Origin: a virus
DNA length: 38,930 bases
IMG/VR virus record: IMGVR_UViG_3300031825_000045
Coordinates: 1-38,930 of that record
Reading direction: 5' to 3' (one strand)
Every line of letters begins with the position of its first letter. The first letter of the stretch is position 1. A program made the position numbers and the translations under genes. The notes under the pieces are model-generated. The model was not told the DNA's origin, ran no database searches, and saw only the letters and a list, made by a program, of their open reading frames with translations. Below, piece by piece: positions 16,584-38,930 of the stretch.

Positions 16584-16644
16584 CCCCGTGATTTATCCAG
16601 AACAGAAATTGGGCGAGATCACCTTTCCGGTGAGTGTGCGGGCT

Positions 16645-19007: not shown

Positions 19008-19252
19008 TGGAACGGCGAACCGCTAAGGGTATCGAGTCCGTCGAGATGCGGGACATCCGAAAGGGTGACGTCTTTCGATGCGTAGAAGGTGGCCCGGGTC
19101 CGTGGCTCGTCGCCAAGGAAAACGCGCACAAACGCTGGCGCACGAACCGCACCACAGGAAAGAAGATGGAAGTCTGGGGCTGCGATGTCGATGTCGCGCT
19201 CACCAAGCGGGAACGGGCGCGCCTTGCGGAGCTACCGGAGATTCCATTCTGA
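19007..19252 (+). CDS. Hypothetical protein, 81 aa
   Basis: RBS GGGAGAGG upstream. Locally lower GC. Its stop overlaps the int start. Confidence 0.55.
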   Translation: MERRTAKGIESVEMRDIRKGDVFRCVEGGPGPWLVAKENAHKRWRTNRTTGKKMEVWGCDVDVALTKRERARLAELPEIPF

Positions 19253-20475
19253 TGCCGCGAAATAAAATCCGTTACTTCGTCGTCAAACAGGGCGCGGGCG
19301 GCACCGAGCTCTTCTACTGGCAGCCCAACAAGGAGCTGCGCGACAAGGGCTGGCCGCCGGTGCGGCTGCCGTCCGAACGCGCCGCCGCCGAGGCCAAGGC
19401 CGAGGCGCTCAACGCCGAACTCGACGCCTGGCGCGCGGGCGAGATGGCGAAGGCGCCACAGGTCAAGGCCGGCACCGTCACCGCGATGATCCACGCCTAT
19501 CTCGCCGGCCACGAGTTCCGCGACCTGCGCGACTCCACCCGCCGCGTCTACCGCCAGGCGCTCAAGCTGATCGAGACCTGGGCCGAGGACACGCCGGTCG
19601 GCCGCGTCGCCACCAACGACTTGCGGCAGTTCTACGAGGAGCTCTACTGGAAGGACCCCGAGGCGGATCCGCGCGTGCTCAACACGCCGGCGCAGGCGAA
19701 CACTATGGTGCGCACCGCGCGGCTCTTGTGGAAGTGGGGCATCGCCCACGGCTACGCCCACGCCAATCCGGGCCGCGACATCACCATCCGCGACGCGCGC
19801 GAGCCCGCCGTCGTCTGGCCGGCGGCGGCGGTGAAGCATTTCGTGCGCACGGCCGACGAGCTGGGCTGGTTCTCGGTCGGCACCGCGGTGATGCTCAACG
19901 AGTGGGCCGGGCAACGCCAGGCCGACATCCTGATGCTGCCGAAGGCGCGGTTCCGCAACGGCGCGCTGGCGGTGACGCAGCGCAAGACCGGCGCGCGGGT
20001 GCTGCTGCCGATCCACCTCGTGCCGGAGCTGATGACGCGCCTCGAGCAGGAGGCGGCGCGCAACAGCACGCGCGCCGACGGCGACAACCTCGCGGCGACC
20101 ACGCTGCTCGTCTGCGAGGCGACCGGCAAGCCGTGGAACCAGCACTACTTCCGTCAGGTGTTCGGCGCGATCCGCGCGGCCGCGGCCAAGGGCGACGCCG
20201 CGCGCGGCGTCGGCGGCGTGCCGTTCTTCAAGCACGACGAGGGCCTCGACATCGACGACGAGGGTGTGCGCATGATGGACCTCGACTTCATGCATCTGCG
20301 CCACACCGCGGTGTCGCGCAACGCGATCGCCGGCAGCACCACCGAGCAGATCGCCTCGATCACCGGCCACAGCCTCGCCCAGATCGAGCACATCCTCGAG
20401 CGCTACTTCGTGCGCTCGACGAAGCTGGCCGAGGGCGCGTTCAAGAAGCGCATCAAGGCGGAGCGCGGAGAGTGA
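19252..20475 (+). CDS. int: Tyrosine recombinase / phage integrase
   Basis: 407 aa. The C-terminal HLRHTAVS...ITGHS...ILERY pattern fits the R..H-x-x-R..H..Y catalytic signature. An attP-like tRNA fragment lies 360 nt downstream. Confidence 0.88.
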   Translation: MPRNKIRYFVVKQGAGGTELFYWQPNKELRDKGWPPVRLPSERAAAEAKAEALNAELDAWRAGEMAKAPQVKAGTVTAMIHAYLAGHEFRDLRDSTRRVYRQALKLIETWAEDTPVGRVATNDLRQFYEELYWKDPEADPRVLNTPAQANTMVRTARLLWKWGIAHGYAHANPGRDITIRDAREPAVVWPAAAVKHFVRTADELGWFSVGTAVMLNEWAGQRQADILMLPKARFRNGALAVTQRKTGARVLLPIHLVPELMTRLEQEAARNSTRADGDNLAATTLLVCEATGKPWNQHYFRQVFGAIRAAAAKGDAARGVGGVPFFKHDEGLDIDDEGVRMMDLDFMHLRHTAVSRNAIAGSTTEQIASITGHSLAQIEHILERYFVRSTKLAEGAFKKRIKAERGE

Positions 20476-22667: not shown

Positions 22668-25412
22668 CTAGCGCACCGCCTGCACGTCGAGGAAATCGAC
22701 GTCGACGACGCGGCTCGCCGTCGAACGCGAGAAGGCGGCAACGACGGGCGTGAGGTCGACGCTGTTGCGCACCGCGGCCGCCATCGCCGTGCCGACCACG
22801 GCGTTGTTGCGCCAGAAGGTCGCCGCGCCCGCGGTCGAGATCTCGATCCGCCAGGTCTCGTAGGTCGCCGCCGTCGGCGCGGTGCCCGCGTTCTGCTTGG
22901 TGGCGTCGACGTCGTTGGCGACGCCGACCAGCCACCAGTTGTCGGTGGCGGCGTTGGTGTCGAACAGGACGCCGACCGCGTCGGTCGCGTTCGAGGTCAG
23001 CGCGTCGGCCGCCGCCAGCGTGAACGGCATTTCCAGCGTGCCGACCTGGTCGGTGAAGCCGACGAACACCGCCACGTTGGTGATGGCGTCCATCTTGACG
23101 CGCGCCTCCAGCACCAGCTTGCCGTTGGCGCAGCGCCACACCAGCGCCTGCTCGAGCTGCACGCCGTTGGTCGCCATATCGCCGGCGGCGTCGTCGCCGG
23201 TGGTCATGCGCATGGCGCCACCCGTCTGGGCGTTGAACGCCGGCGCGACCACCTGCGGGTCGGTGCCGGATTGGCTGCCCCATTTGGCGTCGAGGGTGTC
23301 GCCGAGGAAGTCGTCGAACAGGCGGATACGGGCGGAATGGGCCAGCTCCAGCGGCCGCCATCCGGTGTTGGTGCCGCCGGCGAGGATGGTGCCGCCGCTT
23401 TCCTTGATGTAGAGCTGCCGGCCCTGGCCGCCGCCCTTTTTGATGTAGAGCGAGCCGGGACCGGCGTAGATATCGCCCTCGGGGTCGACGGTGCCGACCT
23501 GCACGGTGAGGAAATTCAGGTAATCGTAGAAGTCGCAGGAATAGGCGTTGCCGCTGCCGACGCGGTTGCCGACGGCGCGGATATTGGCGCCGAGGGTCGC
23601 GCCGCCGCTGACCGTGACGCCGATGTTGAGGAGATCGCAGCCCGAGATGGCGATCTCGTCGATCGTCACCGCCGAAGCCGCATAGAGCAGGATCGAATGC
23701 TGCGTCCAGTCGCGAGCGTAGACGCCGGCGATCGTGCCCTTGTAGCTGGTGTCGAGGAAGATGCCCTTGTTGCCGACGCTGTTGCCGTCGAGATACATAT
23801 TGGCGAGGGAGAAGCCGAGCGTGCTCGCCAGGGTGACGTAGTAGTAATCGGCCGAGCCGCTGCTCGAATAGGCCTTGCCGTCGAGCCCGTCGACGACGAG
23901 GCCGTTGGCGGACACGGCGTAGAGCGCACGGCCGACGTCCTTGCACGACACGCCGGTGACGACGTTGTTGGTCGGATTAACGCCGCTGGCGGCGCTGATC
24001 GAGATGCCGATGTTGGCGCCGATCTGCGCGCCGTCGCAGAACACGCCGTTGACGACGTTGCGCTGCGAGCCCGCCAGCTCCAGGCCGATGAAGCTCTGGC
24101 CCTGGCAGACGCTGTTGGTGATGACGCTGTCGTGGACCTGGGCGTGGCTGATGCCGTAGGTGCCGCCGATCGCCACGTTGCCGGAGACGGAGGCGTTCTT
24201 CGAGAACCAGATCTCGATGCACAGCGTGCCGGTGGTCGTCGAGGCCGGGTAGCGCACCCGGTTGCCGCGGATGACGGGGCCGATCAGGACGTTGCTGCTG
24301 GTGCCGCCCCAGATCTTCAGGCCCTCGCCGGCGATGGTCGCGGCGGCCTCGGCCGAGCGGTCGACGACGTTGTCCTCGACGCGCACGCCATGCACGCTTT
24401 GATTCGTGGCAAGCTGCAGGAAGGCGCCGTCGCTGGAGACGTCGGTGATATAATTGCGCCGCACGATCAGGCGCGGGCAGTTGTCGGACGCATAGATGCC
24501 GCGGCCCTTGCAGCTCGTGATCGTCAGGTCCTCGATCGTCACGTCCGACGAGCCGGTGCTGACGCCGATGCCGGTGCTGGCGGTGACATTGGCGCGGTTG
24601 CCGTCGATCGTGCCGGGGCCGGAGATCCGCACGTTCGATCCGGCGACGGCGATCAGGTTGCCGTTGAGGGTGCTTTTGGCCTTGAGCGTCGCGCCTTTGA
24701 GCAGCTCGAGGTGCATCGCCCCGTCGACGGTCAGCGCGCCGGTCGGATAGGTGCCCTTGGGCACGATCAGGCGCAGGCCGTTGGCGTCACAATAGTCGAT
24801 CGCCGCCTGCAGGGCGGCGGTGTCGTCGGTGGCGCCGTCGCCGAGGGCGCCGAAGTCCTTGACCGAGAGAATGTCGCCGAAGTGCTGCGTCAGCGCGCGC
24901 GCGGCGCTGCCGCCCTCGGCGGTGACCGAGGTGAGATCGATGACGGAGGAGAACAGCGTCGGCGCGCCGGTCACCGAATCGAAGCCGAGATACTTGCCGA
25001 AGCGCGTGGCGAAGGACGGCAGATCGTCGATCGGCGCGGTGTCGGTGACCGGGAAGCGGAGGGTGCGCGAAAGCGCGGCGTCGAGCTGCTGCGTCAGGAT
25101 CGCGACGCGGTCGATGGCGGCCATGGTGTTGGCGGCCGGGAACTTGCCGGTATCCTCGAGCAGCGTCGGCTGGGTGTAGGGCACGTCGCGGTCGATGACG
25201 ATGGCCGCATCGGCCGCCGGGGCCGTGGTGAAGACGACGTTGCCGCCGGCGGCGACGTCGATGCCGCTGACGCTGTAGCCCGACGTCTGCAGGACGGCGT
25301 TGACGTAGACCTTGAGATCGGTCGAGGCGTAGATCCGGTTGGTGTAGGCGAACGTATCGGTGACGCCGTCGCCGGTGTAGGCCCAGCGGTTGGTCGAGGA
25401 CGAGACGGTCAT
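22668..25412 (-). CDS. Tail fibre/tailspike: T7 gp17-like N-terminal adaptor, pectate-lyase-type beta-helix and lectin-like C-terminal domain
   Basis: The N-terminal NRWAYTGDGVTDTFAYTNRIY...VFTTAP matches the podoviral fibre N-domain. SVKDFGALGDGATDDTAALQAAIDY is the pectate-lyase-3 type start of a beta-helix. The C-terminal LFDDFLGDTLDAKW... resembles a jelly-roll domain. Confidence 0.85.
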   Translation of the reverse strand: MTVSSSTNRWAYTGDGVTDTFAYTNRIYASTDLKVYVNAVLQTSGYSVSGIDVAAGGNVVFTTAPAADAAIVIDRDVPYTQPTLLEDTGKFPAANTMAAIDRVAILTQQLDAALSRTLRFPVTDTAPIDDLPSFATRFGKYLGFDSVTGAPTLFSSVIDLTSVTAEGGSAARALTQHFGDILSVKDFGALGDGATDDTAALQAAIDYCDANGLRLIVPKGTYPTGALTVDGAMHLELLKGATLKAKSTLNGNLIAVAGSNVRISGPGTIDGNRANVTASTGIGVSTGSSDVTIEDLTITSCKGRGIYASDNCPRLIVRRNYITDVSSDGAFLQLATNQSVHGVRVEDNVVDRSAEAAATIAGEGLKIWGGTSSNVLIGPVIRGNRVRYPASTTTGTLCIEIWFSKNASVSGNVAIGGTYGISHAQVHDSVITNSVCQGQSFIGLELAGSQRNVVNGVFCDGAQIGANIGISISAASGVNPTNNVVTGVSCKDVGRALYAVSANGLVVDGLDGKAYSSSGSADYYYVTLASTLGFSLANMYLDGNSVGNKGIFLDTSYKGTIAGVYARDWTQHSILLYAASAVTIDEIAISGCDLLNIGVTVSGGATLGANIRAVGNRVGSGNAYSCDFYDYLNFLTVQVGTVDPEGDIYAGPGSLYIKKGGGQGRQLYIKESGGTILAGGTNTGWRPLELAHSARIRLFDDFLGDTLDAKWGSQSGTDPQVVAPAFNAQTGGAMRMTTGDDAAGDMATNGVQLEQALVWRCANGKLVLEARVKMDAITNVAVFVGFTDQVGTLEMPFTLAAADALTSNATDAVGVLFDTNAATDNWWLVGVANDVDATKQNAGTAPTAATYETWRIEISTAGAATFWRNNAVVGTAMAAAVRNSVDLTPVVAAFSRSTASRVVDVDFLDVQAVR

Positions 25413-25584: not shown

Positions 25585-28500
25585 CTATTGCAGCGTCGGC
25601 GCGTTACCGGAGCCGCCGCCGGCCGGGGCGGCGGCGGGGCGCGGGGCGCGGAGCTGCTGCGCCTTCGATTGCAGCGACGAGGTGATCAGGGCGCGCAGGT
25701 CGGGATCGCCGGCGATCAGCTTCTCCTTGGCGTCCATGCGGAACCTCGAGATGACGTCCTTGACGATCTGGCCGCGGAGGTCGTCGCCGGCGGCGGCGTA
25801 GCGTTGCGAGATCGCTCCGGCGCGGCCCTCGATCACGGCGTCGAGGTAATCGTGGGCGCCGATCGGCTGGGCGACGCCCGGGACCGACAGCTTGAGTTCG
25901 TTGCCGGCGAGCGCGATCAAACGGTTCTGCTGCTCGGGCGACAGCTTGATCTGGAGCGACACGCCGCCGCGGGAGAAGTCCTGCACCTGCTTCGGCGGCA
26001 TCGCCTCCAGCTTCATGCGGGCGATCTCGCGGTCGGCGGCGGTGCCCTTGTCGCTGGAGAAGCGCGCCGGCACGAAGATGCCGTAGAGGCCGTTCTCGTC
26101 CTTGATCGGCTGCCCCCACAGGTCGAGACGCGGCGGCAACGACGACGACAGGCCGGGGATGCGCGCCTGGATGGCTTCGAGCCAATTGCTGGCGCGGCGG
26201 ATCTCGGGGTCGACCGCGCGCTCGATCGCGGCGATGCCCGACGGCACCACCGACGACACCGTGCGCTGGATCCAGCTCTCGCCGTAGCGGGTCGGGTCCG
26301 ACAGGGCGTCGACCAGGCCGGCCAAGCCCGACATCCACGTCTTCGACAGGATCGCGCCGGCGAACGGCATCGTCACCGAGGCGGCGACCGAATCGTCGAC
26401 CGGCGTGCCGTCGATGTTGAGGGTGTCCTTCTGGCGCGTGTAGACGCCGGTCAGCAGCTCGGTGGCGTCGGCGGCGAGGCCGATCAGCATGCCGAAGGTG
26501 CCGGAGCGGTTGTAGCCGATCCACCTGTCGCCGACGTGGATCGAGTAGGGCTGCCAGCCGGTGCGGGCGAGGTCGGCGCGCAAGGCCGGGTCCTTCGGGC
26601 CGACGCCGCTGACGCGGCCGGACAGCGTCAGGTCGGCGAACGCGGCCATGATGGCGGAGCCCGAGGCGATGCGGGCGAGGGCCGCGTCGCGCGCGGCGCC
26701 GCCGGCGGCGATGTCGGACATGACCGACGGCGACAGGAACGCGAGCGGCGTGCGGGCGAAGCTCCAGCGCATCAGGTTGACCGGCGTGCGCAGGAACGGA
26801 ACGATGACGCGGCCGACCGGCAACTTCACGTCGGTGCCGGGGATCGGGATGTTGGCGGCATCGACCATCTGCGCGAAGAACTTGGCCGAGCCCTCCAGCG
26901 GCTGGTTGTAGGTGCCCTTGATCGCCTGGGCCTGGGCCGCCTCCGACAGCCAGTCGGGCATGTCGTTGAGGAGCTGCGTCGCATAGGCCTGGGCCTCGGG
27001 GCCGGCGAGGCCCTGGTCGATCGCCGCCTTGCGCCAGGCGAGCGCCGCCGCCTCGCCGCGGAAGTTCATGGTCTTGGTCAGCTCGTCGCCGGCGGCCATC
27101 AGCCGGGTCGGCATCAGCATCTTGAGCCAGTCGGCGAACTGCCGCGTGGGACCGGAGGTCAGGAGATCCTCCGATGACGGCAGGGGCGCGTTGGCGTTGA
27201 CCGGCAGCTCCGTCCGCTGCGGCATGCGGTATCGGCTTTCGCCGGTCTGCATCGTCCGCCAGGCGAGGCGCAGGCCGTCCTTGAAGCCCTTGGCGATGCC
27301 GTAGAGCCGCGCCGTCGCCTCGCCCTCGGCCACGTTGCCGCCGAACTTGGAGGCGAACCAGGTCTCGGGCACCTGGTAGAGCGTCGTCACCGACGTGTCG
27401 CCGACGTTGGCGACGTGGGTGGCGGGATTCGACAGCAGGATGTTCGACCACGCGAAGGTGAGCTTGTCGCGGGTCGTGGCCTTCGGCAGCTCCTCGAGGA
27501 ACCTTTGCACCTCGGCCGGATCCTTGAGCGAGGCGATCTTGGCGGCGAAGTCGAGCGAGACGGCGTTGCCGCCGGTCTCGTCGATCATCTTCTGCAGCGC
27601 CTTGACCATGTCGGGCTCGGACTTGCGCAGCGCGTTGTGGATCTGCAGCGCGCGGGCGATGTCCGACGATTGGCCCTTCGCCTCGCGCAGGATGCCGTAG
27701 GCCATCTGCGTCGCGGCGTTGAGCCGGGCGATGTCCTCGGGCGCCCCGGTCGCGGCCGCCCGGGCGCCGAGCTCGGGGAGCTGCGCGGCGGACGAATGGA
27801 CCAGCATCCACTTGGCGGCGATCTGGCGCGCGTCGAGGGATGCTGGGTCGCCGACGTCGAGGCCGAGGGCCCGGGCGCGGGCGAGCGTCTCCTCCATCGG
27901 GATCGACTTCGCCGGCGGCAGCAGCTTGGAGAGGTCGCCGATCGCCTGCTTGATCCGGTCGGGCCCGTCGAAGCGGTCGAGGTTGACCTGGATCGGCGCG
28001 TCGGGAACAGTGCCGGCGAGGAACTTCGCCGCCTTGTCGGCGAACTGGCTGTTGTCCTGGGCAGCGAGCACGATCGGCGGAGTCGAACGGGCGGCCAGAG
28101 CGCGCGTGTTCAGCACCGCGATCTCATCAGGCACATTGAACAGCTTATTGGCGTCGCGCATGCGAAACACGACCGCGTCGGCACCCTCCTTTGTTGCCGC
28201 GGCTATCTCTCGGGCCTTGATGTCGGCGAGGGTCCCGGAACTCAGATCTTTTGACGTGTATTCGACCGACCTGATTTTTTTGGCATCGAGCGAGAACTCT
28301 TTGACGACGTCACCGTCCGCCATCTTGGCGAACTTGCCCGCCGATTCTCGCGACGTTGTCACCCAAAACGCGGGCTCATTAGTGATGCCTGATACAGCCC
28401 CCGCGCGGGCGAGGTCAGGAGGGCCTGAGAAATCCACATTCGTGCCGTGGTAAACGGCGGTCCCCGACGGAAGGTCGCCCTCGAGCATGATCGATTTCGG

Positions 28501-29694
28501 AATGACCTTCGGGACCGAGCCGACGGAGGGAACCGCCTCGGCGCCGCCGGCCGTTGGGGCGGGTGTCCCAGCGCCGGGTTGCACCCCGGCGCCGTTATGA
28601 AGCGCGGCGCGCAGCACCTGGAACGCCTTGAGGACGCCGTCGGTGGCCGCCTGGAGGCCGGCGGTCTCGAGGCCGGCCTTGAGGCGGGCGAGCAGCTCGG
28701 GGTCGTCGGCGTTCGCCTTGAGGAAGTCGGTGAGCGGGTTCGGCGCGACGCCGTCGATGACGTTCGACAGCCGCGGCGCGCGCGGATCGAAGCCGGTGGC
28801 GCCGGCGCCGAAGGCGTCGAGGATCTTCTTGTAGGTGCCGGCCGGCACGCCGAGCGCCTTGCTGACCTTGCCGACCAGCGCCTGCGAGGTCAGCCACTGG
28901 GCGGTGAACTCGACCGTCTTGCCGGTGCCCGAGGCGCGCTCGGCGAACAGCTGCGGCAGCTGCGCGGCGGCGTCGCCGGGCTGGAATGCGGGATCGGTCT
29001 TGCGGATCTCGGCGATCAGGTCGAGCGGGCCGCCCTTGATGGCGTCCGGGGCGTTGTCGTAGAGCCAGCCGGCGAACGCGCCGACGGTGTTGGCGGTTTC
29101 GTTGACCGCCGTCGTCGCCCCGCGCACCACCGAGCCCGGCGTCTCGATGGCGCCGCGGGCGAGGTCGCCCGAGACCGCGTCGGCCACCGGCCCGTAGCGC
29201 ACGACGCCGGCTGCGATGGGCCCGAGCCAGCGGCCCCAGGCGGTGTTGGGATCGAATAGCCGCCCCTGGTTGTTCTGGCCGGCGTCCTGCGGCGGCGTTT
29301 CGCCGGACGGCGCGCCGGACCCAGCCGGGGACGACGGGTTGGTGGGCGGCGCCGTCCCCGGCTGAGAGATGAGGCTGTCGAACCAGGCGTCGGGGCTGGC
29401 CGCCTGGGCCTGGGCCTGGCCGCGCTCGGCGGTGTAGCGGGCGCCGAGGTCCTGATCGGGCACGTCGAGCGAGGCCTTCATCAGGCGCGGCGCGTTGCCG
29501 CCGGCGCCGGCGTCCGTCGCCAGGCTCTGCAGCGTCGACGGCGGCCCCCCCTTGGCGACGTCGATCGTCACCGCCGAGGGCTCCGGCGGGCCGCCGAGCG
29601 CGACGCGCGGATCGTTGAGGATGCTTTCTCCACCCGGCGAAGAAAGGGTTGGTGCGGCGGCTTCCTGAGCCGGGCGCTTATTGTCGGCGGCCAT
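25585..29694 (-). CDS. Large internal virion (ejection/core) protein, T7 gp16 position, 1369 aa
   Basis: It is the third and largest of three consecutive genes between tubular protein B and the fibre. It has a low-complexity Pro/Ala/Gly N-terminus. No transglycosylase motif was seen. Confidence 0.75.
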   Translation of the reverse strand: MAADNKRPAQEAAAPTLSSPGGESILNDPRVALGGPPEPSAVTIDVAKGGPPSTLQSLATDAGAGGNAPRLMKASLDVPDQDLGARYTAERGQAQAQAASPDAWFDSLISQPGTAPPTNPSSPAGSGAPSGETPPQDAGQNNQGRLFDPNTAWGRWLGPIAAGVVRYGPVADAVSGDLARGAIETPGSVVRGATTAVNETANTVGAFAGWLYDNAPDAIKGGPLDLIAEIRKTDPAFQPGDAAAQLPQLFAERASGTGKTVEFTAQWLTSQALVGKVSKALGVPAGTYKKILDAFGAGATGFDPRAPRLSNVIDGVAPNPLTDFLKANADDPELLARLKAGLETAGLQAATDGVLKAFQVLRAALHNGAGVQPGAGTPAPTAGGAEAVPSVGSVPKVIPKSIMLEGDLPSGTAVYHGTNVDFSGPPDLARAGAVSGITNEPAFWVTTSRESAGKFAKMADGDVVKEFSLDAKKIRSVEYTSKDLSSGTLADIKAREIAAATKEGADAVVFRMRDANKLFNVPDEIAVLNTRALAARSTPPIVLAAQDNSQFADKAAKFLAGTVPDAPIQVNLDRFDGPDRIKQAIGDLSKLLPPAKSIPMEETLARARALGLDVGDPASLDARQIAAKWMLVHSSAAQLPELGARAAATGAPEDIARLNAATQMAYGILREAKGQSSDIARALQIHNALRKSEPDMVKALQKMIDETGGNAVSLDFAAKIASLKDPAEVQRFLEELPKATTRDKLTFAWSNILLSNPATHVANVGDTSVTTLYQVPETWFASKFGGNVAEGEATARLYGIAKGFKDGLRLAWRTMQTGESRYRMPQRTELPVNANAPLPSSEDLLTSGPTRQFADWLKMLMPTRLMAAGDELTKTMNFRGEAAALAWRKAAIDQGLAGPEAQAYATQLLNDMPDWLSEAAQAQAIKGTYNQPLEGSAKFFAQMVDAANIPIPGTDVKLPVGRVIVPFLRTPVNLMRWSFARTPLAFLSPSVMSDIAAGGAARDAALARIASGSAIMAAFADLTLSGRVSGVGPKDPALRADLARTGWQPYSIHVGDRWIGYNRSGTFGMLIGLAADATELLTGVYTRQKDTLNIDGTPVDDSVAASVTMPFAGAILSKTWMSGLAGLVDALSDPTRYGESWIQRTVSSVVPSGIAAIERAVDPEIRRASNWLEAIQARIPGLSSSLPPRLDLWGQPIKDENGLYGIFVPARFSSDKGTAADREIARMKLEAMPPKQVQDFSRGGVSLQIKLSPEQQNRLIALAGNELKLSVPGVAQPIGAHDYLDAVIEGRAGAISQRYAAAGDDLRGQIVKDVISRFRMDAKEKLIAGDPDLRALITSSLQSKAQQLRAPRPAAAPAGGGSGNAPTLQ
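28090..28497 (-). other. Lower-GC insert domain (aa about 400-535 of the 1369-aa protein) with ADP-ribosyltransferase-like H-(Y/F)-E motif order
   Basis: VYHGTNVDF ... AFWVTTSRESAGKFA ... VPDEIAVLN. The surrounding nucleotides are visibly more AT-rich than the rest of the gene. Confidence 0.4.
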
Positions 29695-29697
29695 CGC

Positions 29698-31302: not shown

Positions 31303-31764
31303 TTAAGCGCTCATGTAGTAGGCGCCCTTGGAGGCGCCAGAGAGAAGCGAGGTCGCCGCCTGGTAGCGGCTGGCCGTCTGCAGCAGCGAGCCCTGCATGC
31401 GGTCGAGCGCCGCCTGCGAGCGGGCGCGCGCCTCGGCGACCGAGCCCGAGTAACGCGTCGCCAGCGCGTCGAGCTCGTTCAACCCGGCGGTGTTCGCCTC
31501 CACCAGCAGAGGCGAGCCGGTGGGCTGCACGCCAGCGGCGGCATAGCCGGCGCGCTGTTTCGACAGCAGGGCGGTGCCCGCCTCGCGCAGGCGCGTCTCC
31601 TCGAACGCGGCGGAATTGCGCGCGGCCATGGCGTCGGCCTCGGCCGCCTGGGCGTTGGCCTCGGCCATCTTCTTCTGGGCGTTGCCCTGCTGGATCGAGC
31701 CATAGGCCGAGATCGCCGTGGCGGCGGCGGTGGCGATCCAGAAGGCGGCGGGGAGCGCGGCCAT
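31303..31764 (-). CDS. Internal virion protein, T7 gp14 position, 153 aa
   Basis: N-terminal hydrophobic segment AALPAAFWIATAAATAISAY followed by an Ala/Gln/Glu-rich helix. Assigned by synteny. Confidence 0.6.
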   Translation of the reverse strand: MAALPAAFWIATAAATAISAYGSIQQGNAQKKMAEANAQAAEADAMAARNSAAFEETRLREAGTALLSKQRAGYAAAGVQPTGSPLLVEANTAGLNELDALATRYSGSVAEARARSQAALDRMQGSLLQTASRYQAATSLLSGASKGAYYMSA

Positions 31765-32270
31765 CAGGCGGCCTCCCCGGCATGTTCGGATGCCGCCGTC
31801 TCACACGTCGGCTCGCGCCGAACGGGCAGGGCTGGCGCAGCGGCCGCCCGCGAGGGCGGCGAAAAATGGGAATATATAATCGCGTCGCCGCCGTTCTGGA
31901 GCCAGCCGCGGGCGATGCCGTCGGGCTCGAAGCCGAGCCTGCGCGCCCAGACCATCCCCGGATAAAAGTCGATCGAGACGTCGATGGCGATGCGGTGCAG
32001 GCCGCGGGCGTGGGCGCGATTGAGGATCGTCGCCGCCTGGGCGGTGATGGCCGGCCAGGCGCGCCATGGCACGTCGGGGGCGAAAATCGCCCAGGCGGTG
32101 CCGCGCCAGGCCGTTTCGGCGACGATGCCGGCGCAGCCGATCACGCGCAGGCCGGCCAAGCCGGTCCAGGTCAGGCCCGGGTTGTCGAGCGCCAGGGCAT
32201 AGCGCGGATCCATGTCCGGCGGCACCAGGCCGCGCAGGTGCTCGGGACGGTAGGGCACGAACTCAACCAT
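31764..32270 (-). CDS. GNAT-like acetyltransferase-fold protein, 168 aa, at the T7 gp13 position
   Basis: VIGCAGIVAETAWRGTAWAIF...HRIAIDVSIDFYPGMVWARRLGFEPDG reads as a GNAT core pattern. RBS GGAG upstream. It overlaps the stop of tubular protein B by 8 nt. Confidence 0.5.
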   Translation of the reverse strand: MVEFVPYRPEHLRGLVPPDMDPRYALALDNPGLTWTGLAGLRVIGCAGIVAETAWRGTAWAIFAPDVPWRAWPAITAQAATILNRAHARGLHRIAIDVSIDFYPGMVWARRLGFEPDGIARGWLQNGGDAIIYSHFSPPSRAAAAPALPVRREPTCETAASEHAGEAA

Positions 32271-34716
32271 CGTTGGCTCCAAGCTGCGGCATCAGCGCCA
32301 CCACGGTGACCGGCGTCGGGTCGGTGCCGAACAGCACCAGCGGCGAGTCGGTGTCCCACGCGCCCTCGAAGGTCAGGTCCTTGTCGCCGGTGAACAGCGG
32401 CGGCGCGGCGCCGGTATCGTCGTCGGCGTCGCGGAAGGCGATCGCGTCGTATTCACCCTCGGTCTCGCTGCGGCCGACGTTGCAGCCGAGCGAGCGGTAG
32501 AAGCGCACGGCGATCTGATTGATGCGCTTCGGCAGCGCCTGGGAGGTGCCGGTCGGGGCGGCGATCTCGTAGCGCATCGGCTCGATCAGCCAGCGGTAGC
32601 CGAGGCCGACCTGGGCGACCGACACGGCGGGCGACACGGCGATGCTGCCGTCGGCGACGACGGCGTCGGGGTAGACGGCGCCGTCGCCGTAGACCTTCAC
32701 CGTCTGGCCCTCGAGGTGCCACAGCCCCGTCAGTGTGGTGGTGGGCGAGCCGTCGTAGGTCAGCCCGCAATCGACGTAGAAGGCGTCTTCCTGGGCGACG
32801 GCATGGCCGAGCGGCGCCTCCATGAACTCGACGGTGCGGACGGTGCGGCCGTCGATCGTGCGCTTGACGATCAGCCACAGCTCGTCGCCGGCGGCGCCGG
32901 GGATGGTCGACACCGCCTCGACTACGGCGTCGCCGCCGCCGAACGCGCCGCCGAGGATGTGGCGGTGCCACGGCACCACGTTCTGCTCGCGCAGATAGGT
33001 CATGCCGAGGAGCTGGCCGTCGGCGCGCTCCGACCACAGCACGCTCCACGGCTCCTGCTGGTAGGCGAGGTCGAGGAAGCCGTCGCCGGCGATGTGGTCG
33101 GCGAGCTCGGTCATGTCCGGCGCCTTGTAGCCGTCGGATTCCAGCGTGTAGGCGAGCTCGCGGATCTTCTTGCCGGCGCGCTGCGGGAACAGCACGGCGT
33201 TCGACACCGTCTCCGGCATCATGTCGGCGCAGCCGTGCCGGGTCTGCGAGCGCACGGCGACGTTGGTCGGCGTCAGCGGCTCGTTGTTGGGCGACATCAC
33301 GCGGAATTCGCCGCCCGAGGTCAGGATCAGCAGGTCCTTGGCCGAGGCGAAGGCGCGGATGGCGTTGACCTGGTCGGAGGCGATCGCGAACGACAGCGGG
33401 TCGTCGTCCTGGGCGCCGGGAGCGAAGTTCTCGAAGTCGTTGGTCTTGGAGCCGTCGAAGCGCTGCGGGTTGAAGCCCGCGCCGCCGAACAGCAATCGCT
33501 CCTCGTGGAAGCCGACGGCGGACGGCCAGCCGTCGGTGTCGGACCAGGCGCCGAGCCGCCACGACGCGACCGCGCCGGTCGCGGCGAAGGCGTTGACGAT
33601 GTCGATCTTGACGTGGGTGGTGTCGGTGAACGTGACGATCTTGCCGTAGCCCCAGGCGAGGCCGCCGGCGTTCTGGAAGTCCCACTGGCAGGTGCCGTCG
33701 ACGATGCCCTGGCCGGTGCCGGAGGGGCCGCCCGAGCCCGCCGAGGTGCCGGCGGTGACGCAGCGATAGACATTGCCCTGGTTGTAGCGGAGATCGCCGA
33801 CGGCGTAGGCCGTGGTGGCGGCCCAGGCGGTCGCGGCGTGGCCGATGCGCAGGAGGCGGCCGACGTCGGTCGCCTTGAACCCGGCGCCGGCGTTGACGCC
33901 GGTAATGGCGGTGGTGATGGTCACGGTGACGTCCGAGCCGGTGGTCGCGGCGAGTACCAAGGTGGTCGGCGTCGTGTTCTCGTCGAGGTAGGGCCCGTCG
34001 TGAAAATCGACGGTCTCGATGGTCCAGCTCGTATGGCCGGTGCGCGACAGCTTGCGCGGGGCGTAGGACGGATGGACGAGATACATGACGTCGGCCGATT
34101 GGGCGAACTTGAGGCGCAGCCGGTTGTCGGAATCGAACAGATCGGCCTGGATCCAGGGCGCGGCAATCTTGTAGACGCGCGCCGCCGTGCCACCGGAGGC
34201 GTAGGCCGTGAAGGCGGAGCTGTCGATCGGGTTGCCAAACACATCGTTGAGCTCGAAGGTGTTGGCGGTCGGATTGGCGACGCGGAAGCGGCGGCCATTC
34301 ACCTGCGTCATGCCGACGACGCCGGAAATGTCGATGTCATCGGTGGCGACGTACCCATGACCGGCGATGGTGACCACCGCCGGATTGGCGCGGGTGATGC
34401 CGGTGATGGCTTTGGCCGCCTCCAGCACCGAGCCCTGATTCATGTAGAAGCGCAGATTGCCGTCGCCGACGGCGATCTGGTAGGCCTGCACGATCGAGAA
34501 CTCGAACGGTATGAGCGCGCCGCGCACGGCTGAATTCTGCAAGTAAGAGACGAAGCGGGTGCCCGGCCGCCGGGTCGCCGGACCCTGGGCGAGCGGGATC
34601 ATGTTCTCCATGATCCGGCACATCGACGGGTACTTGTCGAAGCCGATGAAGCCGTCGAGGTGCGGCGACGCCTCGCCGCCGTTGAACTTCTGCGTCAGGG
34701 CGTTGATGCGCGTCAT
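32263..34716 (-). CDS. Tail tubular protein B (nozzle), T7 gp12-like, 817 aa
   Basis: The N-terminal FNGGEASPHLDGFIGFDKY...MENMIPLAQGPATRRPGTRF is characteristic of this family. Synteny places it after tubular protein A. Confidence 0.85.
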   Translation of the reverse strand: MTRINALTQKFNGGEASPHLDGFIGFDKYPSMCRIMENMIPLAQGPATRRPGTRFVSYLQNSAVRGALIPFEFSIVQAYQIAVGDGNLRFYMNQGSVLEAAKAITGITRANPAVVTIAGHGYVATDDIDISGVVGMTQVNGRRFRVANPTANTFELNDVFGNPIDSSAFTAYASGGTAARVYKIAAPWIQADLFDSDNRLRLKFAQSADVMYLVHPSYAPRKLSRTGHTSWTIETVDFHDGPYLDENTTPTTLVLAATTGSDVTVTITTAITGVNAGAGFKATDVGRLLRIGHAATAWAATTAYAVGDLRYNQGNVYRCVTAGTSAGSGGPSGTGQGIVDGTCQWDFQNAGGLAWGYGKIVTFTDTTHVKIDIVNAFAATGAVASWRLGAWSDTDGWPSAVGFHEERLLFGGAGFNPQRFDGSKTNDFENFAPGAQDDDPLSFAIASDQVNAIRAFASAKDLLILTSGGEFRVMSPNNEPLTPTNVAVRSQTRHGCADMMPETVSNAVLFPQRAGKKIRELAYTLESDGYKAPDMTELADHIAGDGFLDLAYQQEPWSVLWSERADGQLLGMTYLREQNVVPWHRHILGGAFGGGDAVVEAVSTIPGAAGDELWLIVKRTIDGRTVRTVEFMEAPLGHAVAQEDAFYVDCGLTYDGSPTTTLTGLWHLEGQTVKVYGDGAVYPDAVVADGSIAVSPAVSVAQVGLGYRWLIEPMRYEIAAPTGTSQALPKRINQIAVRFYRSLGCNVGRSETEGEYDAIAFRDADDDTGAAPPLFTGDKDLTFEGAWDTDSPLVLFGTDPTPVTVVALMPQLGANDG

Positions 34717-34807: not shown

Positions 34808-35383
34808 TCATCTACGCGCGGCCTCCCAGTCGCCCTCTTCCTCCTCGTCGGGGGTGCCCTCCTGGGCGTCGGCCGAGCGCGCCTTGCGCAGCGCGGCGCC
34901 CGCGCGCTGCTCGCACGCGTCCTCGCGCGCGCTCGAGTTGGTGAGGCGGAAGGCGATGCGCGCGGCGATCTCCTCGGCGATCGCGGTCACCAGCAGCGGC
35001 GGCAGCTCCTCGGGATCGGTGATGCGGCGGCCGTACTCGATGTAGAGCGGCGCCGCCTCGTCGGTGTGGATCTTGCGGCCCTTCACCTTCCACGGCGCGT
35101 CGCCGTGGTGATCCCTGTCGAGCTTGTGCACGACGAGGCAATAGGGATCGGGCGGCAGGGTGTACTGATAGGCGAAGCCGGAATCCGGCGCGTCGGCATC
35201 GACGGCGAGATGGGTGTCCTCGGTGTTGCAGTTCCACGGGTGCTGCGACAGCACGAAGTCGGCGGCGTCCAGGTAGACGTCCTTGACCGCGCGCGCCGCC
35301 GAGGTGGCCTCGTCGATCGAGGCGATGCGCTGCGACCCGCAGCGGCGCAGCGCCATGTTGGCGATCTGGACCCAGCTAGACAT
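34808..35383 (-). CDS. Tail tubular protein A (adaptor), T7 gp11-like, 191 aa
   Basis: SWVQIANMALRRCGSQRIASIDEATSAARAVKDVYLDAADFVLSQHPWN matches the family N-terminus. The start is placed at the internal ATG that overlaps the upstream gene by 8 nt. Confidence 0.8.
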   Translation of the reverse strand: MSSWVQIANMALRRCGSQRIASIDEATSAARAVKDVYLDAADFVLSQHPWNCNTEDTHLAVDADAPDSGFAYQYTLPPDPYCLVVHKLDRDHHGDAPWKVKGRKIHTDEAAPLYIEYGRRITDPEELPPLLVTAIAEEIAARIAFRLTNSSAREDACEQRAGAALRKARSADAQEGTPDEEEEGDWEAARR

Positions 35384-36074
35384 GCACGCCCTCCATGGCA
35401 AGCCGCACCTTTTCGACCAGACGGTCGAGCTCGCCGGAATCGCGCATGCGCTCGAAGGCGCGGCGATCGTCGTCGGCGAAATAGCGGCCATTGAAGATGC
35501 GGCGGCGATTCTCGTCGCGAGGCAGGCCGGTGGTCTCGGGGCGGTCGAGTGCCACGCGCACGTCGGGCCGGTAGCGCATCAGGCCGAGCGCGGCGCCGAT
35601 GTATTCCAGAACATCGTCGCCATAGAGATGGATCAGCGATGGCGGGAAGACCCACCCGAGGGCGCGCACGAGGGCGCCGCCCATGCAGAGGCAGCCCGAC
35701 ATATGATCCCGGGTCGGATCGTCGGCGCGCTTGCCGTTCAGCCAGCCGTCAGAACAGTAGGAGAAGTTCCATGCGCCGGCGGCCTCGGCGAGCGTGTCGG
35801 TCCAGCCCATCGTCCGCGGCCGCAGGTAATCGCCGAACAGGCCATAGAATGGCTCGTCGGGATAGAGCGCGACGGCGTGGTTGATGGCGCCGATCAGCTC
35901 GACGTGCGCGCCGGTCGCGTGGACGCGCCAATGGGCGGGCCACGGCACCGAATCGTAGTCGCCGAGATCGCCGTCGATGACGACGGTGACGGCGGGCGGA
36001 TGCTCGACGGCGCGCCAGGCGGCGATCAGCTTCGCGCAGGCGGCCGGTCGGCGGCGGGTGACGAGCGTCCACAT
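35376..36074 (-). CDS. GT-A-fold glycosyltransferase-like protein, 232 aa
   Basis: VTVVIDGDLGDY ... GLFGDY ... HLYGDDVLEY ... RYRPDV. This pattern is seen in phage GT2-like enzymes. Assigned by recall only. Confidence 0.5.
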   Translation of the reverse strand: MWTLVTRRRPAACAKLIAAWRAVEHPPAVTVVIDGDLGDYDSVPWPAHWRVHATGAHVELIGAINHAVALYPDEPFYGLFGDYLRPRTMGWTDTLAEAAGAWNFSYCSDGWLNGKRADDPTRDHMSGCLCMGGALVRALGWVFPPSLIHLYGDDVLEYIGAALGLMRYRPDVRVALDRPETTGLPRDENRRRIFNGRYFADDDRRAFERMRDSGELDRLVEKVRLAMEGVHV

Positions 36075-36836
36075 TTAAGAGGCGCTCCCATGCTCCGCAT
36101 CGCCTTGCACGGCGATGCGCGTGTAAGAATCGGCATCCTGTTGGGCGCCGAGGGCCGCCCCGCCAACCCCATGCGCGGGAGCGCTTTGGAGTGTGGGATC
36201 GTCGCCGGTCTCGTAAATCTCCTGCCAGACGCCGCCGCAGTCCCACGGCTTGGGGCGGCCGTGGAAGCACAGCAGGCGCGCGCCGTCGGGCAGGCCGTCG
36301 CGGGCGACGGCCGCCGCCTTGTAGCTGACGGCGAGGCCGGGCCAGATCTCCTGGATGCGGCCCGCATCCGGCACGCAGCGCCCGATCCAGCCGCCGTCGC
36401 CGTGCGGCTCCGACCGCATGATCCCGGCGGGATCGGCGAGGAAGCGCTCGTAGATCGCGGCGCTGATCGGCGACGGCCGGAACAGCATGACGCCGGAGGC
36501 GAGCCGCGCGGGCTCGTAGAAGTCCGCCAGCATGGCGAAGTCGCCGGGGTATCGCGCGAGCGGCGCGAGGTCGCCGGTGACGATGGTGTCGAGGTCGAGG
36601 TAGAGCACCAGCTCGTCGGCGAAGACGCCGGGCCGGAACAGCTCGATCTTCGACCACCAGCCGGGGAAGCCGTGGCCGAGCGGGACCGCGACGACGCCCG
36701 CCACCGGCTGGTCCGACAGCACGCGGATGTGGTGCGGCACGCCCTTGAGGCGCTCGCGCACCTGATGGCCGAGGGCGCGCACGTGCGCGGGCGCGTACTG
36801 GCCGCCGGAGCGCAGGACCATGGCGACGGTGATCAT
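36075..36836 (-). CDS. GT8-like nucleotide-sugar glycosyltransferase, 253 aa
   Basis: WWSKIELFRPGVFADELVLYLDLDTIVTGDL contains a DxD motif in a GT-A context. CFHGRPKPWD lies near the C-terminus. Confidence 0.6.
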   Translation of the reverse strand: MITVAMVLRSGGQYAPAHVRALGHQVRERLKGVPHHIRVLSDQPVAGVVAVPLGHGFPGWWSKIELFRPGVFADELVLYLDLDTIVTGDLAPLARYPGDFAMLADFYEPARLASGVMLFRPSPISAAIYERFLADPAGIMRSEPHGDGGWIGRCVPDAGRIQEIWPGLAVSYKAAAVARDGLPDGARLLCFHGRPKPWDCGGVWQEIYETGDDPTLQSAPAHGVGGAALGAQQDADSYTRIAVQGDAEHGSAS

Positions 36837-37429
36837 CTTTCAGCGCCCCCGCCCAGAAGCTCCCGCGTGAAGCCGGACAGGCTGGTGACGCGGCCCTGGA
36901 ACACGTGATCGCGCGCCCAGCGCCAGACGAGCTCGTCGGCGCGGCCGAAGCGGCCGTCGTCGAGGCCGGGCGGATCGAAGTAATGGCCCTGGCCGTCGAG
37001 CGGCAGGCCGGCGCAGACGATCGGCGCGTGGCCGAGCAGCAGCATGACGAAGACGGCGTAGAGGCCGGAGGCGCCGCCGGGCGACGGCATCGGCCACACC
37101 ACCTCAACGCCGGGCGCGGCCCTGGCGGAATGGGTGTGGACGTGCGACCGGTCGCCGTAGTTGTGGCCGAGCCGGTACTTGACGAAGCCGGGGAAGAAAT
37201 GCTCGGGGTGCAGCGACACCCAATGGTGGATGCGGCCGCGATAGTGGGCGCCGATGTCGTTGACGGCGCAGCGGACGCCGGGCCAGGCAGCGTCGCCGAG
37301 CGCGGCGAGGTCGTCCCAGACGCAACGGGCGCCGCCGACGATCAGCGCAGGCCCCGACGATTGGCCGGCGACGCCGGGCATGGGCCCGGTCCAGCCGACC
37401 TTCTCGGTGTCGATGCCGTTGACGATCAT
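36833..37429 (-). CDS. Sialyltransferase/DUF115-like (GT42-type) transferase-like protein, 198 aa
   Basis: ALIVGGARCVWDDL...VRCAVNDIG and GGASGLYAVFVMLLLGHAPIVCAGLPLDGQGHYFD parallel the two conserved blocks of CstII/MAF-type enzymes. Confidence 0.45.
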   Translation of the reverse strand: MIVNGIDTEKVGWTGPMPGVAGQSSGPALIVGGARCVWDDLAALGDAAWPGVRCAVNDIGAHYRGRIHHWVSLHPEHFFPGFVKYRLGHNYGDRSHVHTHSARAAPGVEVVWPMPSPGGASGLYAVFVMLLLGHAPIVCAGLPLDGQGHYFDPPGLDDGRFGRADELVWRWARDHVFQGRVTSLSGFTRELLGGGAER

Positions 37430-37453: not shown

Positions 37454-37879
37454 TTACTCGACGGTGTAGAGCGCGACGATCTTGATCGTGCCCGACATCG
37501 TCGCGACGGCGGTGGTGAGCAGGATCTCGGTCTCGGCCGTGAACTGGTAGCCGACGGCGTCGATCTTTCCGTCCTTGAGCATCGACTTGAACGTCGCCGC
37601 GCCGGTCGCGTAGGCGGCGATGAAGCGGGCGGCGTCGCCGGAATCGCCGACCGAGATGGTGCCGGTCGACGTGCCGAGATCGTCGGCGAGGACGTGGATG
37701 TCGATCAGCCGCGCGCCCTTGGGGATCACGGGACCGGCGATGGTCGATCCGGCGGCGAGGGCGGAGGCCTCGTACTCGTCGTAGCCGACGCGGAGCTTCC
37801 CGCCCCAGCGGGACGAATCCGGCAGGTCACGGGGAGTGCTGTTGTAGAGCGTGTTGTACACGCCACGAACGGCGGACAT
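37454..37879 (-). CDS. Putative head decoration/cement protein, 141 aa
   Basis: It lies immediately downstream of the major capsid gene, as does the cement protein of BPP-1. The sequence is rich in beta-strand-forming residues. Assigned by position only. Confidence 0.45.
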   Translation of the reverse strand: MSAVRGVYNTLYNSTPRDLPDSSRWGGKLRVGYDEYEASALAAGSTIAGPVIPKGARLIDIHVLADDLGTSTGTISVGDSGDAARFIAAYATGAATFKSMLKDGKIDAVGYQFTAETEILLTTAVATMSGTIKIVALYTVE

Positions 37880-38031: not shown

Positions 38032-38913
38032 TCACTCGACGCAGACGATCTCGACGACCTTCTCCTCCTCCATGCGGGTCGCGCCGATGGTCATGGAGAA
38101 GAACACCTGCGTGGCGTAGTTCTTGTCGGCGCGCTCGGTGATGCGCGAGGTGATGTCGGCGCCGACCGCGAGCAGCAGGCCCGACTGCTGCCAGGCGATG
38201 CAGCGGCGCGCCGACGCGCCGTTGACCGGCAGGATCTTCGTGCCGTCGGCGCGCAGGCCGTTCACCGGCACGAAGGTGAAGCCCATGAAGGTGTTGATCT
38301 GGCCGGCGGCCAGCGCCTTCACGGTGTTGTAGTCGGCGTTCTTGACCTCGGTGGTGTTGAGGAGGTCGGTGACCTGCCCGGCGGTGAGGGCGATGTAGCG
38401 GCCGTCGGTATCGACGTCGTTGCCGTCGAGGATCTCCTTGGTGTTGAGGAGCTTGGCCAGGGTGAAGCCGGTCGACGCGGCGACGACGACCTGCGTCGAC
38501 GGCAGGGCGACCGTCGTCGAGCCGGTCTCGCCGGTGTAGGCGGTGCCGAGCGCCGCGTCGACGATCTCCTGGTCCATGCTCCGGCCCATCGCGTTCGCCG
38601 CGTTCATCTGGTACGGCGACGTGAAGTCGTTGAGCGTGCGGACCTTGTCTTCCTGGTCGATCAGGTCGGCCCAGTCGTAGTCGACGATGGAGACGCGCCG
38701 ACGGGAGTGCGGCGTGTCGACGCGCGGCGTGTCGGAATGCCGCGACGTGCGGCGCTGCGCCGCGGTGGCGCCGAGCTGGTCGTAGAAGGCGTTCGTGCCG
38801 GTCTGCGATTCGACGCGCACGGCGCCGCGAAGCTTCGAGCCCTTCTGCTGCACCTTGAGCAGAACGCCCGACTTGTACTCCTGCACGAAGGCAGTGGTGA
38901 TCTGAGTGGACAT
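38032..38913 (-). CDS. Major capsid protein (HK97-fold, T7 gp10/BPP-1-like)
   Basis: 293 aa. The block VSIVDYDWADLIDQEDKVRTLNDFTSPYQMNAANAMGRSMDQEIVDAALG parallels the T7 gp10 core. The start is the second ATG, 5 nt after GGAGG. The gene runs into the terminal repeat. Confidence 0.88.
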   Translation of the reverse strand: MSTQITTAFVQEYKSGVLLKVQQKGSKLRGAVRVESQTGTNAFYDQLGATAAQRRTSRHSDTPRVDTPHSRRRVSIVDYDWADLIDQEDKVRTLNDFTSPYQMNAANAMGRSMDQEIVDAALGTAYTGETGSTTVALPSTQVVVAASTGFTLAKLLNTKEILDGNDVDTDGRYIALTAGQVTDLLNTTEVKNADYNTVKALAAGQINTFMGFTFVPVNGLRADGTKILPVNGASARRCIAWQQSGLLLAVGADITSRITERADKNYATQVFFSMTIGATRMEEEKVVEIVCVE

Positions 38914-38930
38914 CCGTCCCTCCATGGTTG
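38804..38930. repeat. Second copy of the 127-nt terminal repeat
   Basis: Identical to bases 1-127. Confidence 0.95.

Follow-up and report, generated by a model that had tools for sequence, protein, structure and literature searches.

A variable gene island anchored by a putative CMP-sugar glycosyltransferase gene at the head-to-tail junction of a BPP-1/T7-like podovirus

Why would a phage carry three glycosyltransferase-like genes in the middle of its virion genes, and what would their products decorate? This question is raised by the IMG/VR virus record IMGVR_UViG_3300031825_000045, of which positions 1 to 38,930, the whole stretch analyzed here, are referred to as the window. Its three genes lie one after the other on the minus strand: gpA (36833-37429, 198 residues), a single-domain, distant relative of the Maf and CstII enzymes and a putative glycosyltransferase using sugars activated by cytidine monophosphate (CMP); gpB (36075-36836, 253 residues), a predicted retaining, glycogenin-like glycosyltransferase of the GT8 type; and gpC (35376-36074, 232 residues), a GT2-like glycosyltransferase of the GT-A fold. 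We found them to be an accessory insertion at the junction between head and tail genes, in an island in which gpA is the recurrent element, and we propose that they may glycosylate proteins of the virion late in infection.

Results

The three genes are coupled to head and tail genes

The three consecutive open reading frames (ORFs) were located exactly where a previous sequence-only reading of the window had placed them, and profile matches supported the podoviral head-to-tail genes that it had recognized on both sides. Upstream are the gene of a 297-residue major capsid protein of the BPP-1/Bbp17 type (38032-38925, minus strand; PF19821 Phage_capsid_2, expectation value [E] 2.6e-82; phrog_3437, 3.8e-83) and, directly before gpA, that of a 141-residue virion structural protein in head-decoration position (37454-37879, minus strand; phrog_486, 3.8e-08), which relatives retain after the capsid gene. 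Downstream are the genes of a 191-residue tail tubular protein A/adaptor-like protein (tail A; 34808-35383, minus strand; phrog_394, 1.1e-42; phrog_9239, tail tubular protein, 7.9e-07) and of an 817-residue nozzle or tail tubular B-like protein (32263-34716, minus strand; phrog_376, 5.7e-197; PF25675 Phage_nozzle, 2.3e-05).

The couplings described earlier could all be read directly at the junctions. After a 24-nt spacer between the decoration gene and gpA, gpA and gpB share an ATGA overlap, gpB and gpC meet at TAAATG, and the stop of gpC and the start of tail A overlap by 8 nt, ATGTCTAG. The motifs reported for the three proteins were also all present (LIVGG, CAVND, SGLY, LLLG, and GLPLD in gpA; YLDLDTIV in gpB; VVIDGD and LYGDD in gpC). 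The GC content at third codon positions, 0.86–0.92 in gpA, gpB, and gpC, is similar to that of neighboring phage genes, and the three are therefore taken to be coding. A consensus scan from the capsid to the nozzle gene found no promoter-like site, the scan being of the sigma-70 type only, and no terminator-like hairpin on the coding strand. Together with the overlapping codons, this supports the suggestion that the genes are expressed along with virion genes, and the arrangement is consistent with expression within the late head-tail gene array.

No membrane-like segment was seen in any of the three proteins, the part of gpA with the highest hydrophobicity being a helix and strand that are buried in a confidently predicted structure, and all three are therefore predicted to be soluble. 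The absence of genes for sugar-nucleotide synthesis reported earlier holds for the ORFs covered by the scans, not every small one among them, and for tblastn with the island genes of relatives. UDP (uridine diphosphate)-hexoses and CMP-Kdo (Kdo, 3-deoxy-D-manno-oct-2-ulosonic acid) are standard metabolites of typical Gram-negative hosts. As the host would make both, the missing genes are not a problem for a glycosylation function.

gpB and gpC belong to recognized glycosyltransferase families

The presence of the three genes is far beyond chance, each protein having a family of homologues, with 56 clusters for gpA, 240 for gpB, and 905 representative clusters for gpC. gpB matched phrog_1962 "glycosyltransferase" (4e-47), and tblastn retrieved P1 pmgQ and P7 hdmD (36–37% identity over ~200 residues, E 1e-27) as well as jumbo Xanthomonas and Stenotrophomonas phages within a 31–37% range. 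A profile of 44 sequences matched the Skp1 alpha-GalT (6mw5, 1.3e-7), glycogenin-1 (5.8e-6), and the GT8 entry 5gvv (2e-4) in the PDB, so that the GT8-like character proposed for gpB was borne out by both the PHROGs match and PDB profile scores of 1e-7 to 6e-6. D81 and D83 (YLDLDT), K173, and G193 are invariant in the 44 sequences and H192 nearly so (FHGRPKPW); these residues are the DxD and HxxGxxKPW signatures of GT8. The nearest solved relatives, glycogenin and the Skp1 alpha-GalT, act on proteins or protein-linked glycans.

The Pfam family PF01501 Glyco_transf_8 missed gpB (12.3 bits vs a cut-off of 24.3) and matched 4 of the 44 homologues at E ≤ 0.01. As gpB falls below the gathering threshold, it represents a divergent GT8 subfamily. 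Its C-terminal ~45 residues have no counterpart, homologues of ~205–225 residues covering ~77–81% of the query; this tail (36075-36212, minus strand) is of low complexity, DDPTLQSAPAHGVGGAALGAQQDADSYTRIAVQGDAEHGSAS.

For gpC, a match to phrog_14945 "glycosyltransferase" (4.4e-13) and 25–28% identity to glycosyltransferases of Streptomyces phages were obtained. A word-indexed search for homologues found gpC alone, the 905 clusters being those of an exhaustive search, and the gpC profile gave nothing significant against PDB sequences. gpC was therefore assigned by fold. Its model, built from 61 sequences, had a predicted local distance difference test score (pLDDT) of 96.4, and Foldseek returned 309 PDB matches at E ≤ 1e-3, the best 50 of the 309 all being glycosyltransferases and the leading ones AvpGT (GT2, 8.5e-8), polypeptide GalNAc-transferases (ppGalNAc-T2), and WrtF. 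This bore out the earlier assignment of a GT-A fold, with matches to GT2 and GT27 enzymes from 8.5e-8, and the profile and structure checks thus gave glycosyltransferase folds for both gpB and gpC. D82, at the end of strand beta-4 (76-81), is invariant (the family consensus is DD, here D82-Y83), and D153 (LYGDD) and D187 are nearly invariant.

PF00535 Glycos_transf_2 did not match gpC but matched the homologous N-terminus of the protein P0203 (2.1e-09). The closest gpC homologues are the N-terminal domains of proteins of 650–720 residues whose C-terminal half is of the MptE-like/DUF115 family PF01973; in such fusions (P0178, P0179, P0181, and P0183), PF01973 scored up to 77.7 bits vs a cut-off of 34.6. 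As the families of gpB and gpC already carry the glycosyltransferase label in PHROGs, neither is new.

gpA is a distant Maf/CstII-like protein

Direct family scans of gpA (Pfam to E ≤ 1, PHROGs, NCBIfam, and phmmer against the PDB) gave no match, so a 48-sequence profile and a structure model were needed. The members of its 56 clusters are nearly all unnamed and metagenomic, and they share the motifs GG..CVWDD, AVNDIG, HWVSLHP, GGSSGL, G.P.D, GH.FD, and S.SG.T..LLG, in which N57, S121, and G141 are invariant and G122 and P143 nearly invariant. Against the PDB, the profile matched the GT42 sialyltransferases CstII and CstI (E 0.006–0.05) over the CMP-binding segment (CstII 126-170), the CstII-aligned core of gpA being SSG...LGY...G.P.D (E 0.006). 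CstII Asp154 aligns with a proline (Pro143) in the gpA family; the conserved residues of gpA may also map onto CstII N31 and the catalytic His188. PF01973 matched 5 of the 48 homologues (best 7.3e-06) and CST-I 3 of them; gpA itself matched neither PF01973 nor PF06002.

The model of gpA is a single domain of 198 residues (pLDDT 92.9). Its best fold matches in the PDB were GT29 sialyltransferases (ST8SiaIII, E 4e-3, probability 0.97, template modeling [TM] score 0.46), with similar scores for the MptE HPPK (8sd5), thiamine pyrophosphokinase, and SteA. In BFVD, it matched phage MptE-like proteins of 685–700 residues (1e-4), a mimivirid DUF115 protein, and sialyltransferases of herpesviruses and poxviruses. 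The DUF115 domains fused to gpC-like proteins were considered as orthologs of gpA, but this is not claimed here: hhalign of the gpA alignment with the C-terminal halves of the fusions gave no match, and hmmsearch gave faint, collinear, non-significant matches in the right domain.

These scores also suggest that gpA might not be a glycosyltransferase but a nucleotide-dependent enzyme resembling MptE or thiamine pyrophosphokinase, or might help assembly without being a catalyst, a possibility that overlaps with the other readings considered below. Only gpB and gpC would then make a glycan, possibly on an acceptor outside the virion. The absence of a Pfam match, the pyrophosphokinase and SteA scores so close to those of the sialyltransferases, the failed hhalign comparison, and a commonest genomic partner that is a methyltransferase and not a glycosyltransferase (see below) all agree with this. 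It is made unlikely, in our estimate, by the GT42 sialyltransferases being the only sequence matches in the significant range, and this across CMP-binding motifs, by the sialyltransferases ranking first among the fold matches, by the co-occurrence of gpA with GT8 and GT2-like enzymes and with a gene of the CMP-sugar synthetase type, and by the fusion of DUF115 domains to gpC-like GT-A domains. From its profile and model, gpA would thus be a distant, minimal member of the Maf/CstII-like superfamily whose membership in PF01973 is not demonstrable. The CstII/DUF115-like label first given to it was right as to family likeness, by homologue profile and by fold, but the likeness is distant only and comes without a Pfam match of its own. 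The gpA family was previously unannotated and appears to be new.

gpA anchors a variable island

To place the three genes among relatives, we used the best 80 of 556 IMG/VR stretches matching the capsid protein (55–65% identity). The tail A gene was included in 65 of them, and gpA, gpB, and gpC were absent from all 65, with a capsid-to-tail A distance of 491–991 nt, compared to 2648 nt in the window. By this comparison, the trio is an accessory insertion. The same slot contains only small ORFs and no island in Ralstonia phage RpY1, Bradyrhizobium phage ppBjS10J-1 is without the fusion of gpC-like and DUF115 domains, and no cultured close relative carrying the island was found. Among 50,697 deposited phage genomes, a gpA homologue was found only in Paracoccus phage Pkon1 (vB_PkoS_Pkon1 p38), the one cultured case; a scan of a genome collection with a narrow search pattern gave three matches only, in prophages or metagenome-assembled genomes. 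Sequences identical to the three proteins are recorded for a single metagenomic contig.

Homologues of gpA occur in ~90 metagenomic phage loci, either at this position or next to other genes for capsid or terminase. Of 85 loci, 59 have a capsid gene of the BPP-1 type 455–3413 nt upstream of the homologue, and 40 have tail A 5 nt to 5.2 kb downstream. In a census of 93 loci, the neighbors of the gpA homologues included class I S-adenosylmethionine (SAM) methyltransferases (29 loci), gpB-like GT8 enzymes (26), other GT2-like enzymes (8), a family of 280-residue proteins (7), gpC-like proteins (4), a lectin domain of the F5/8 type (1), and a PF02348 cytidylyltransferase (1). Judged by these neighborhoods, gpA is the anchor gene of a variable island and the cargo of that island is swappable. 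The full trio recurs in two loci (L020 and L063), in the order A-C-B. The three-enzyme set, of which the earlier reading knew no other example in such a podovirus, is thus not unique, and the survey of related phages that this reading called for revealed the variable island in the capsid-to-tail slot.

In the closest relative, L171 (71% identity for gpA, 71% for the capsid, and 62% for the nozzle), gpA is accompanied by a 280-residue protein and gpB and gpC are absent. The family of this ~280-residue partner (L171 6594-7436, L021 2139-3020, L049 8427-9251, L012, and L070) had no Pfam or PDB match; its GTGSGPM...G.P motif might be of the GT-B/GT9 type. gpA is the sole island gene in L001, L041, L053, and L071 and therefore cannot depend on a glycan made by the phage. 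In L050, a BPP-1-like contig, a PF02348 CTP_transf_3 cytidylyltransferase (7552-8241, 4.4e-24) directly follows the gpA homologue and overlaps its end, the only sugar-activation gene in any of the islands examined. CMP-Kdo and CMP-sialic acid synthetases belong to PF02348. In L039, a 158-residue protein of the F5/8 type C (discoidin, galactose-binding) family directly follows the gpA homologue (5795-6271) and could be a lectin-like accessory of the head.

The association with head and packaging genes extends to unrelated phages. The gpA homologue of the Paracoccus siphophage Pkon1 overlaps the end of the capsid gene. In Mx8/Brucella-phage-like podovirus contigs, whose capsid gene was identified by 58.7% identity to an annotated major capsid protein, a gene that joins a gpC-like to a DUF115 domain is found two genes downstream of that for the capsid, ahead of an SU10-type adaptor. 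In other contigs, gpA, with or without gpB, is just upstream of the large terminase gene, by a head-tail adaptor, or ~1 kb before the capsid gene. Both the gpA-anchored island at the BPP-1-like head-to-tail junction and the recurrence of gpA beside capsid genes in unrelated lineages, with its link to CMP-sugar chemistry, appear to be new.

We had expected sugar-nucleotide pathways in the large islands (3–5 kb). This was rejected, as these islands carried instead the reverse transcriptase of a diversity-generating retroelement (DGR) and Mtd-like genes. DGR parts (PF00078 reverse transcriptase; Mtd-like second domain) were seen in the gpA-positive relatives L026 (8752-9810), L033 (4652-5830), and L041 (4859-6562); no reverse transcriptase was seen in the window itself.

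Methyltransferase neighbors and DNA modification

The methyltransferases flank gpA homologues on either side, often overlapping them (L022 7549-8097, L036 2513-3649, L033 1169-1735, L005 6812-7441, L009 3735-4298, L017 1995-2528, and L003 6570-7685, the last of a sugar C-methyltransferase type). Such neighbors could point to DNA as the substrate, the island enzymes then glycosylating hypermodified bases against restriction. Phage glycosyltransferases that decorate DNA are described as widespread and diverse in two reports (10.1101/2023.12.21.572611; PMC13326640), and gpC itself weakly matches phrog_2675 "DNA methyltransferase" (6.4e-06). However, the ORFs scanned in the window, not every small one among them, yielded no gene for base modification (hydroxymethylase, TET/5mYOX, DNA cytosine methyltransferase, or other), the neighboring methyltransferases are of class I small-molecule or protein types (Methyltransf_11/12/23/25) or of the sugar C-methyltransferase type, and the three genes lie in the head-tail module, away from replication genes. 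DNA modification is thus very improbable. In T4-like DNA glucosylation, by comparison, the glycosyltransferases come with companion genes for hydroxymethylated bases, of which the scanned ORFs of the window have none.

gpA and a methyltransferase may be the two parts of a split Maf, as the N-terminal domain of Maf is methyltransferase-like in the published structure. A 714-residue phage protein with a methyltransferase domain is among the BFVD matches to the gpA fold.

The rest of the genome and the host envelope

The first and last 127 bases of the window are identical (1-127 = 38804-38930), and the window is therefore a circularly closed, complete genome of 38,803 bp; the start of the capsid gene falls within the repeated stretch. 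The genome has a G+C content of ~0.69–0.70 and no tRNA genes, and according to profile scans it is that of a temperate BPP-1/T7-like podovirus. The portal (1765-3453) and large terminase (3904-5565) genes were identified by such scans, the latter adjoined by an HNH endonuclease gene (5699-6133). Two separate primase-like genes lie on the minus strand, at 10188-12215 (phrog_21086/35358) and at 13129-14244 (phrog_510, DUF7146 and Toprim), and a 1371-codon open frame (25585-29697) probably encodes an internal virion protein. Many relatives share a 172-residue protein (31764-32282, minus strand) encoded immediately after the nozzle; its only resemblance, to an acetyltransferase (PDB 2ge3, E 0.27), is not significant. 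The nozzle protein contains two inserts, one (residues 111-181) matching the FCCH domain of ubiquitin E1 above the Pfam cut-off (4.3e-07) and the other (residues 297-327) a CBM_5_12 carbohydrate-binding module below it (7.7e-04); the E1_FCCH match is also present in the nozzle of the close relative L171.

Other genes bear on a further possibility, namely that the three enzymes modify glycans of the host envelope, such as the core of lipopolysaccharide (LPS), O-antigen, or capsule, and lead to lysogenic conversion, superinfection exclusion, or progeny that do not stick to debris. The phage is predicted to be temperate, with an integrase (19078-20475) and a CI-like repressor (16588-17418) both found by profile scan. 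Its 914-residue tailspike (22668-25412, minus strand) has right-handed beta-helix/pectate-lyase-like domains (PF13229, 5e-13), which makes a polysaccharide receptor probable and suggests a depolymerase activity. PHROGs places the families of gpB and gpC under "moron, auxiliary metabolic gene and host takeover", the island is accessory with swappable content, and GT8 enzymes build LPS cores too. However, the three genes lie ~15 kb from the integrase, inside the late operon, with codons overlapping those of structural genes and no promoter or terminator of their own in a scan limited to sigma-70 sites. They encode no membrane segment and have no partner of the GtrA/GtrB type or flippase, expression at a late stage would leave little time for a new surface glycan, and homologues stay capsid-adjacent in three unrelated phage lineages. 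We consider modification of the envelope unlikely on balance, with a probability similar to that of a gpA without glycosyltransferase activity.

The Gtr-type seroconverting cassettes of P22, SfV, epsilon15, and D3 consist of membrane proteins encoded near the attachment site and expressed in the lysogen. Like the window, they are accessory glycosyltransferase genes of temperate phages of Gram-negative hosts that use donor sugars of the host; in contrast to these int/attP-linked membrane proteins, the enzymes of the window are predicted to be soluble and are encoded in the late structural operon.

Discussion

A model of late virion glycosylation

The reading that we favor, and to which we give about an even chance of being correct, is that head proteins are O-glycosylated in the cytoplasm late in infection, with gpA making the first transfer from a CMP-activated ulosonic acid such as CMP-Kdo. 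The three genes would be expressed, as RNA and as protein, together with the late genes for head and tail, and a short O-linked glycan would be built on a virion protein before or during assembly. gpA would first recognize the protein and transfer an ulosonic acid to it, either Kdo or a nonulosonic acid, which the host provides in CMP-activated form; gpB, as a retaining GT8 enzyme using a UDP-hexose, would extend or diversify the glycan, and gpC, as an inverting GT2-like GT-A enzyme, may do likewise. gpA is proposed to act first and directly on protein because it can be the sole gene of an island and because its nearest characterized relatives, the Maf enzymes, O-glycosylate Ser/Thr. Which protein is modified, which donor sugars are used, and in what order the enzymes act are what we infer from these data; the major capsid protein and the 141-residue protein in decoration position are candidate acceptors, the capsid or its decoration protein being the most likely.

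Several observations weigh against this model. The present analyses pinpointed no acceptor. The fraction of Ser/Thr in phages with gpA vs those without was 0.155 vs 0.168 for the capsid and 0.164 vs 0.217 for the decoration protein; as it is not higher in the gpA-positive set, this comparison yields no clue to the acceptor, and no obvious Ser/Thr-rich tail was seen in either protein. The assignment of gpA comes from low scores (no Pfam match, a profile E of 0.006, and a TM score of ~0.46), its fold class also includes the MptE and thiamine pyrophosphokinases, and the hhalign comparison with the fused DUF115 domains found no match. In one set of phages, gpA is upstream of the terminase gene and not capsid-adjacent. 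Unrelated accessory genes (morons) also usually insert at module boundaries, and in some relatives the same capsid-to-tail A slot holds DGR cassettes. Finally, the P1 homologue of gpB, pmgQ, is non-essential and uncharacterized (PMC10695390).

Comparison with known systems

Maf enzymes transfer N-acetylneuraminic acid (Neu5Ac), Kdo, pseudaminic acid (Pse), or legionaminic acid (Leg) from CMP-sugars to Ser/Thr of flagellin in the cytoplasm, and their PF01973 domain resembles CstII (PMC11339370). gpA appears to have a similar nucleotide-sugar core (GG..C..DD, AVND, SSG...LGY, and G.P.D) and, under the proposed model, would likewise modify, in the cytoplasm, a structural protein destined for self-assembly. 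While Maf proteins consist of an N-terminal Rossmann-like, a central Maf_flag10, and a C-terminal helical domain (PMC11339370), the 198 residues of gpA correspond to the central domain alone, and while Maf genes are found in flagellar loci, gpA is found in phage head or packaging modules.

Glycans are present on the major capsid proteins of the F1 mycobacteriophages Che8 and Rita according to PMC11256854, and capsid glycans of mycobacteriophages were reported by Freeman et al. 2023, as cited in PMC11256854 and PMC12582341. As in our proposal, phage glycosyltransferases are proposed to decorate the capsid with sugar nucleotides supplied by the host. This precedent, invoked earlier for capsid-adjacent enzymes, holds for function but not for gene position, since the glycosyltransferase genes of Maravista (F1 cluster) are described in a genome announcement as lying near the 3' end of the genome and not beside the capsid gene (PMC11256854). 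The mycobacteriophage system belongs to siphoviruses of actinobacterial hosts, whereas the phage of the window is known from its genes alone, and the accounts of that system consulted here mention no DUF115-type enzyme.

PmgQ of P1 and HdmD of P7 (phrog_1962) share the DxD and HGxPKPW motifs with gpB. P1 pmgQ is next to ppp and not in the head module, and gpB differs by its additional C-terminal tail of ~45 residues.

Implications for phages of Gram-negative bacteria

Virion glycans made by a phage's own enzymes are documented for mycobacteriophages only in the literature that we searched, and this search, whose coverage was incomplete, turned up no paper describing glycosylated virions for a phage with a Gram-negative host. 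A bolder version of the proposed model, that gpA founds an undescribed family of minimal Maf-like protein O-glycosyltransferases putting a host CMP-Kdo or sialic-acid-like sugar onto the capsid or decoration protein, in the first virion glycosylation system of a Gram-negative phage, is put forward tentatively, as the less probable of the two.

If it were true, a swappable island at the head-to-tail junction would provide some podoviruses and siphoviruses that infect Gram-negative bacteria with an acidic glycan coat that varies, and the gpA family would offer glyco-engineering a compact, 198-residue candidate enzyme for attaching Kdo or sialic-acid-like sugars to proteins. The glycan shield of mycobacteriophages can change how antibodies are produced and can keep them from binding to the capsid (PMC11256854). 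Were virion glycosylation to operate in BPP-1-like or other phages of Proteobacteria, the charge and stability of the particle, its stickiness to mucus or biofilm, and its visibility to the immune system would be affected, with relevance to phage therapy and to the ecology of phages in the environment, and the genome would no longer suffice to predict the mass of a virion protein. A simple genomic marker for finding such phages would be a gpA homologue immediately downstream of the capsid or decoration gene.

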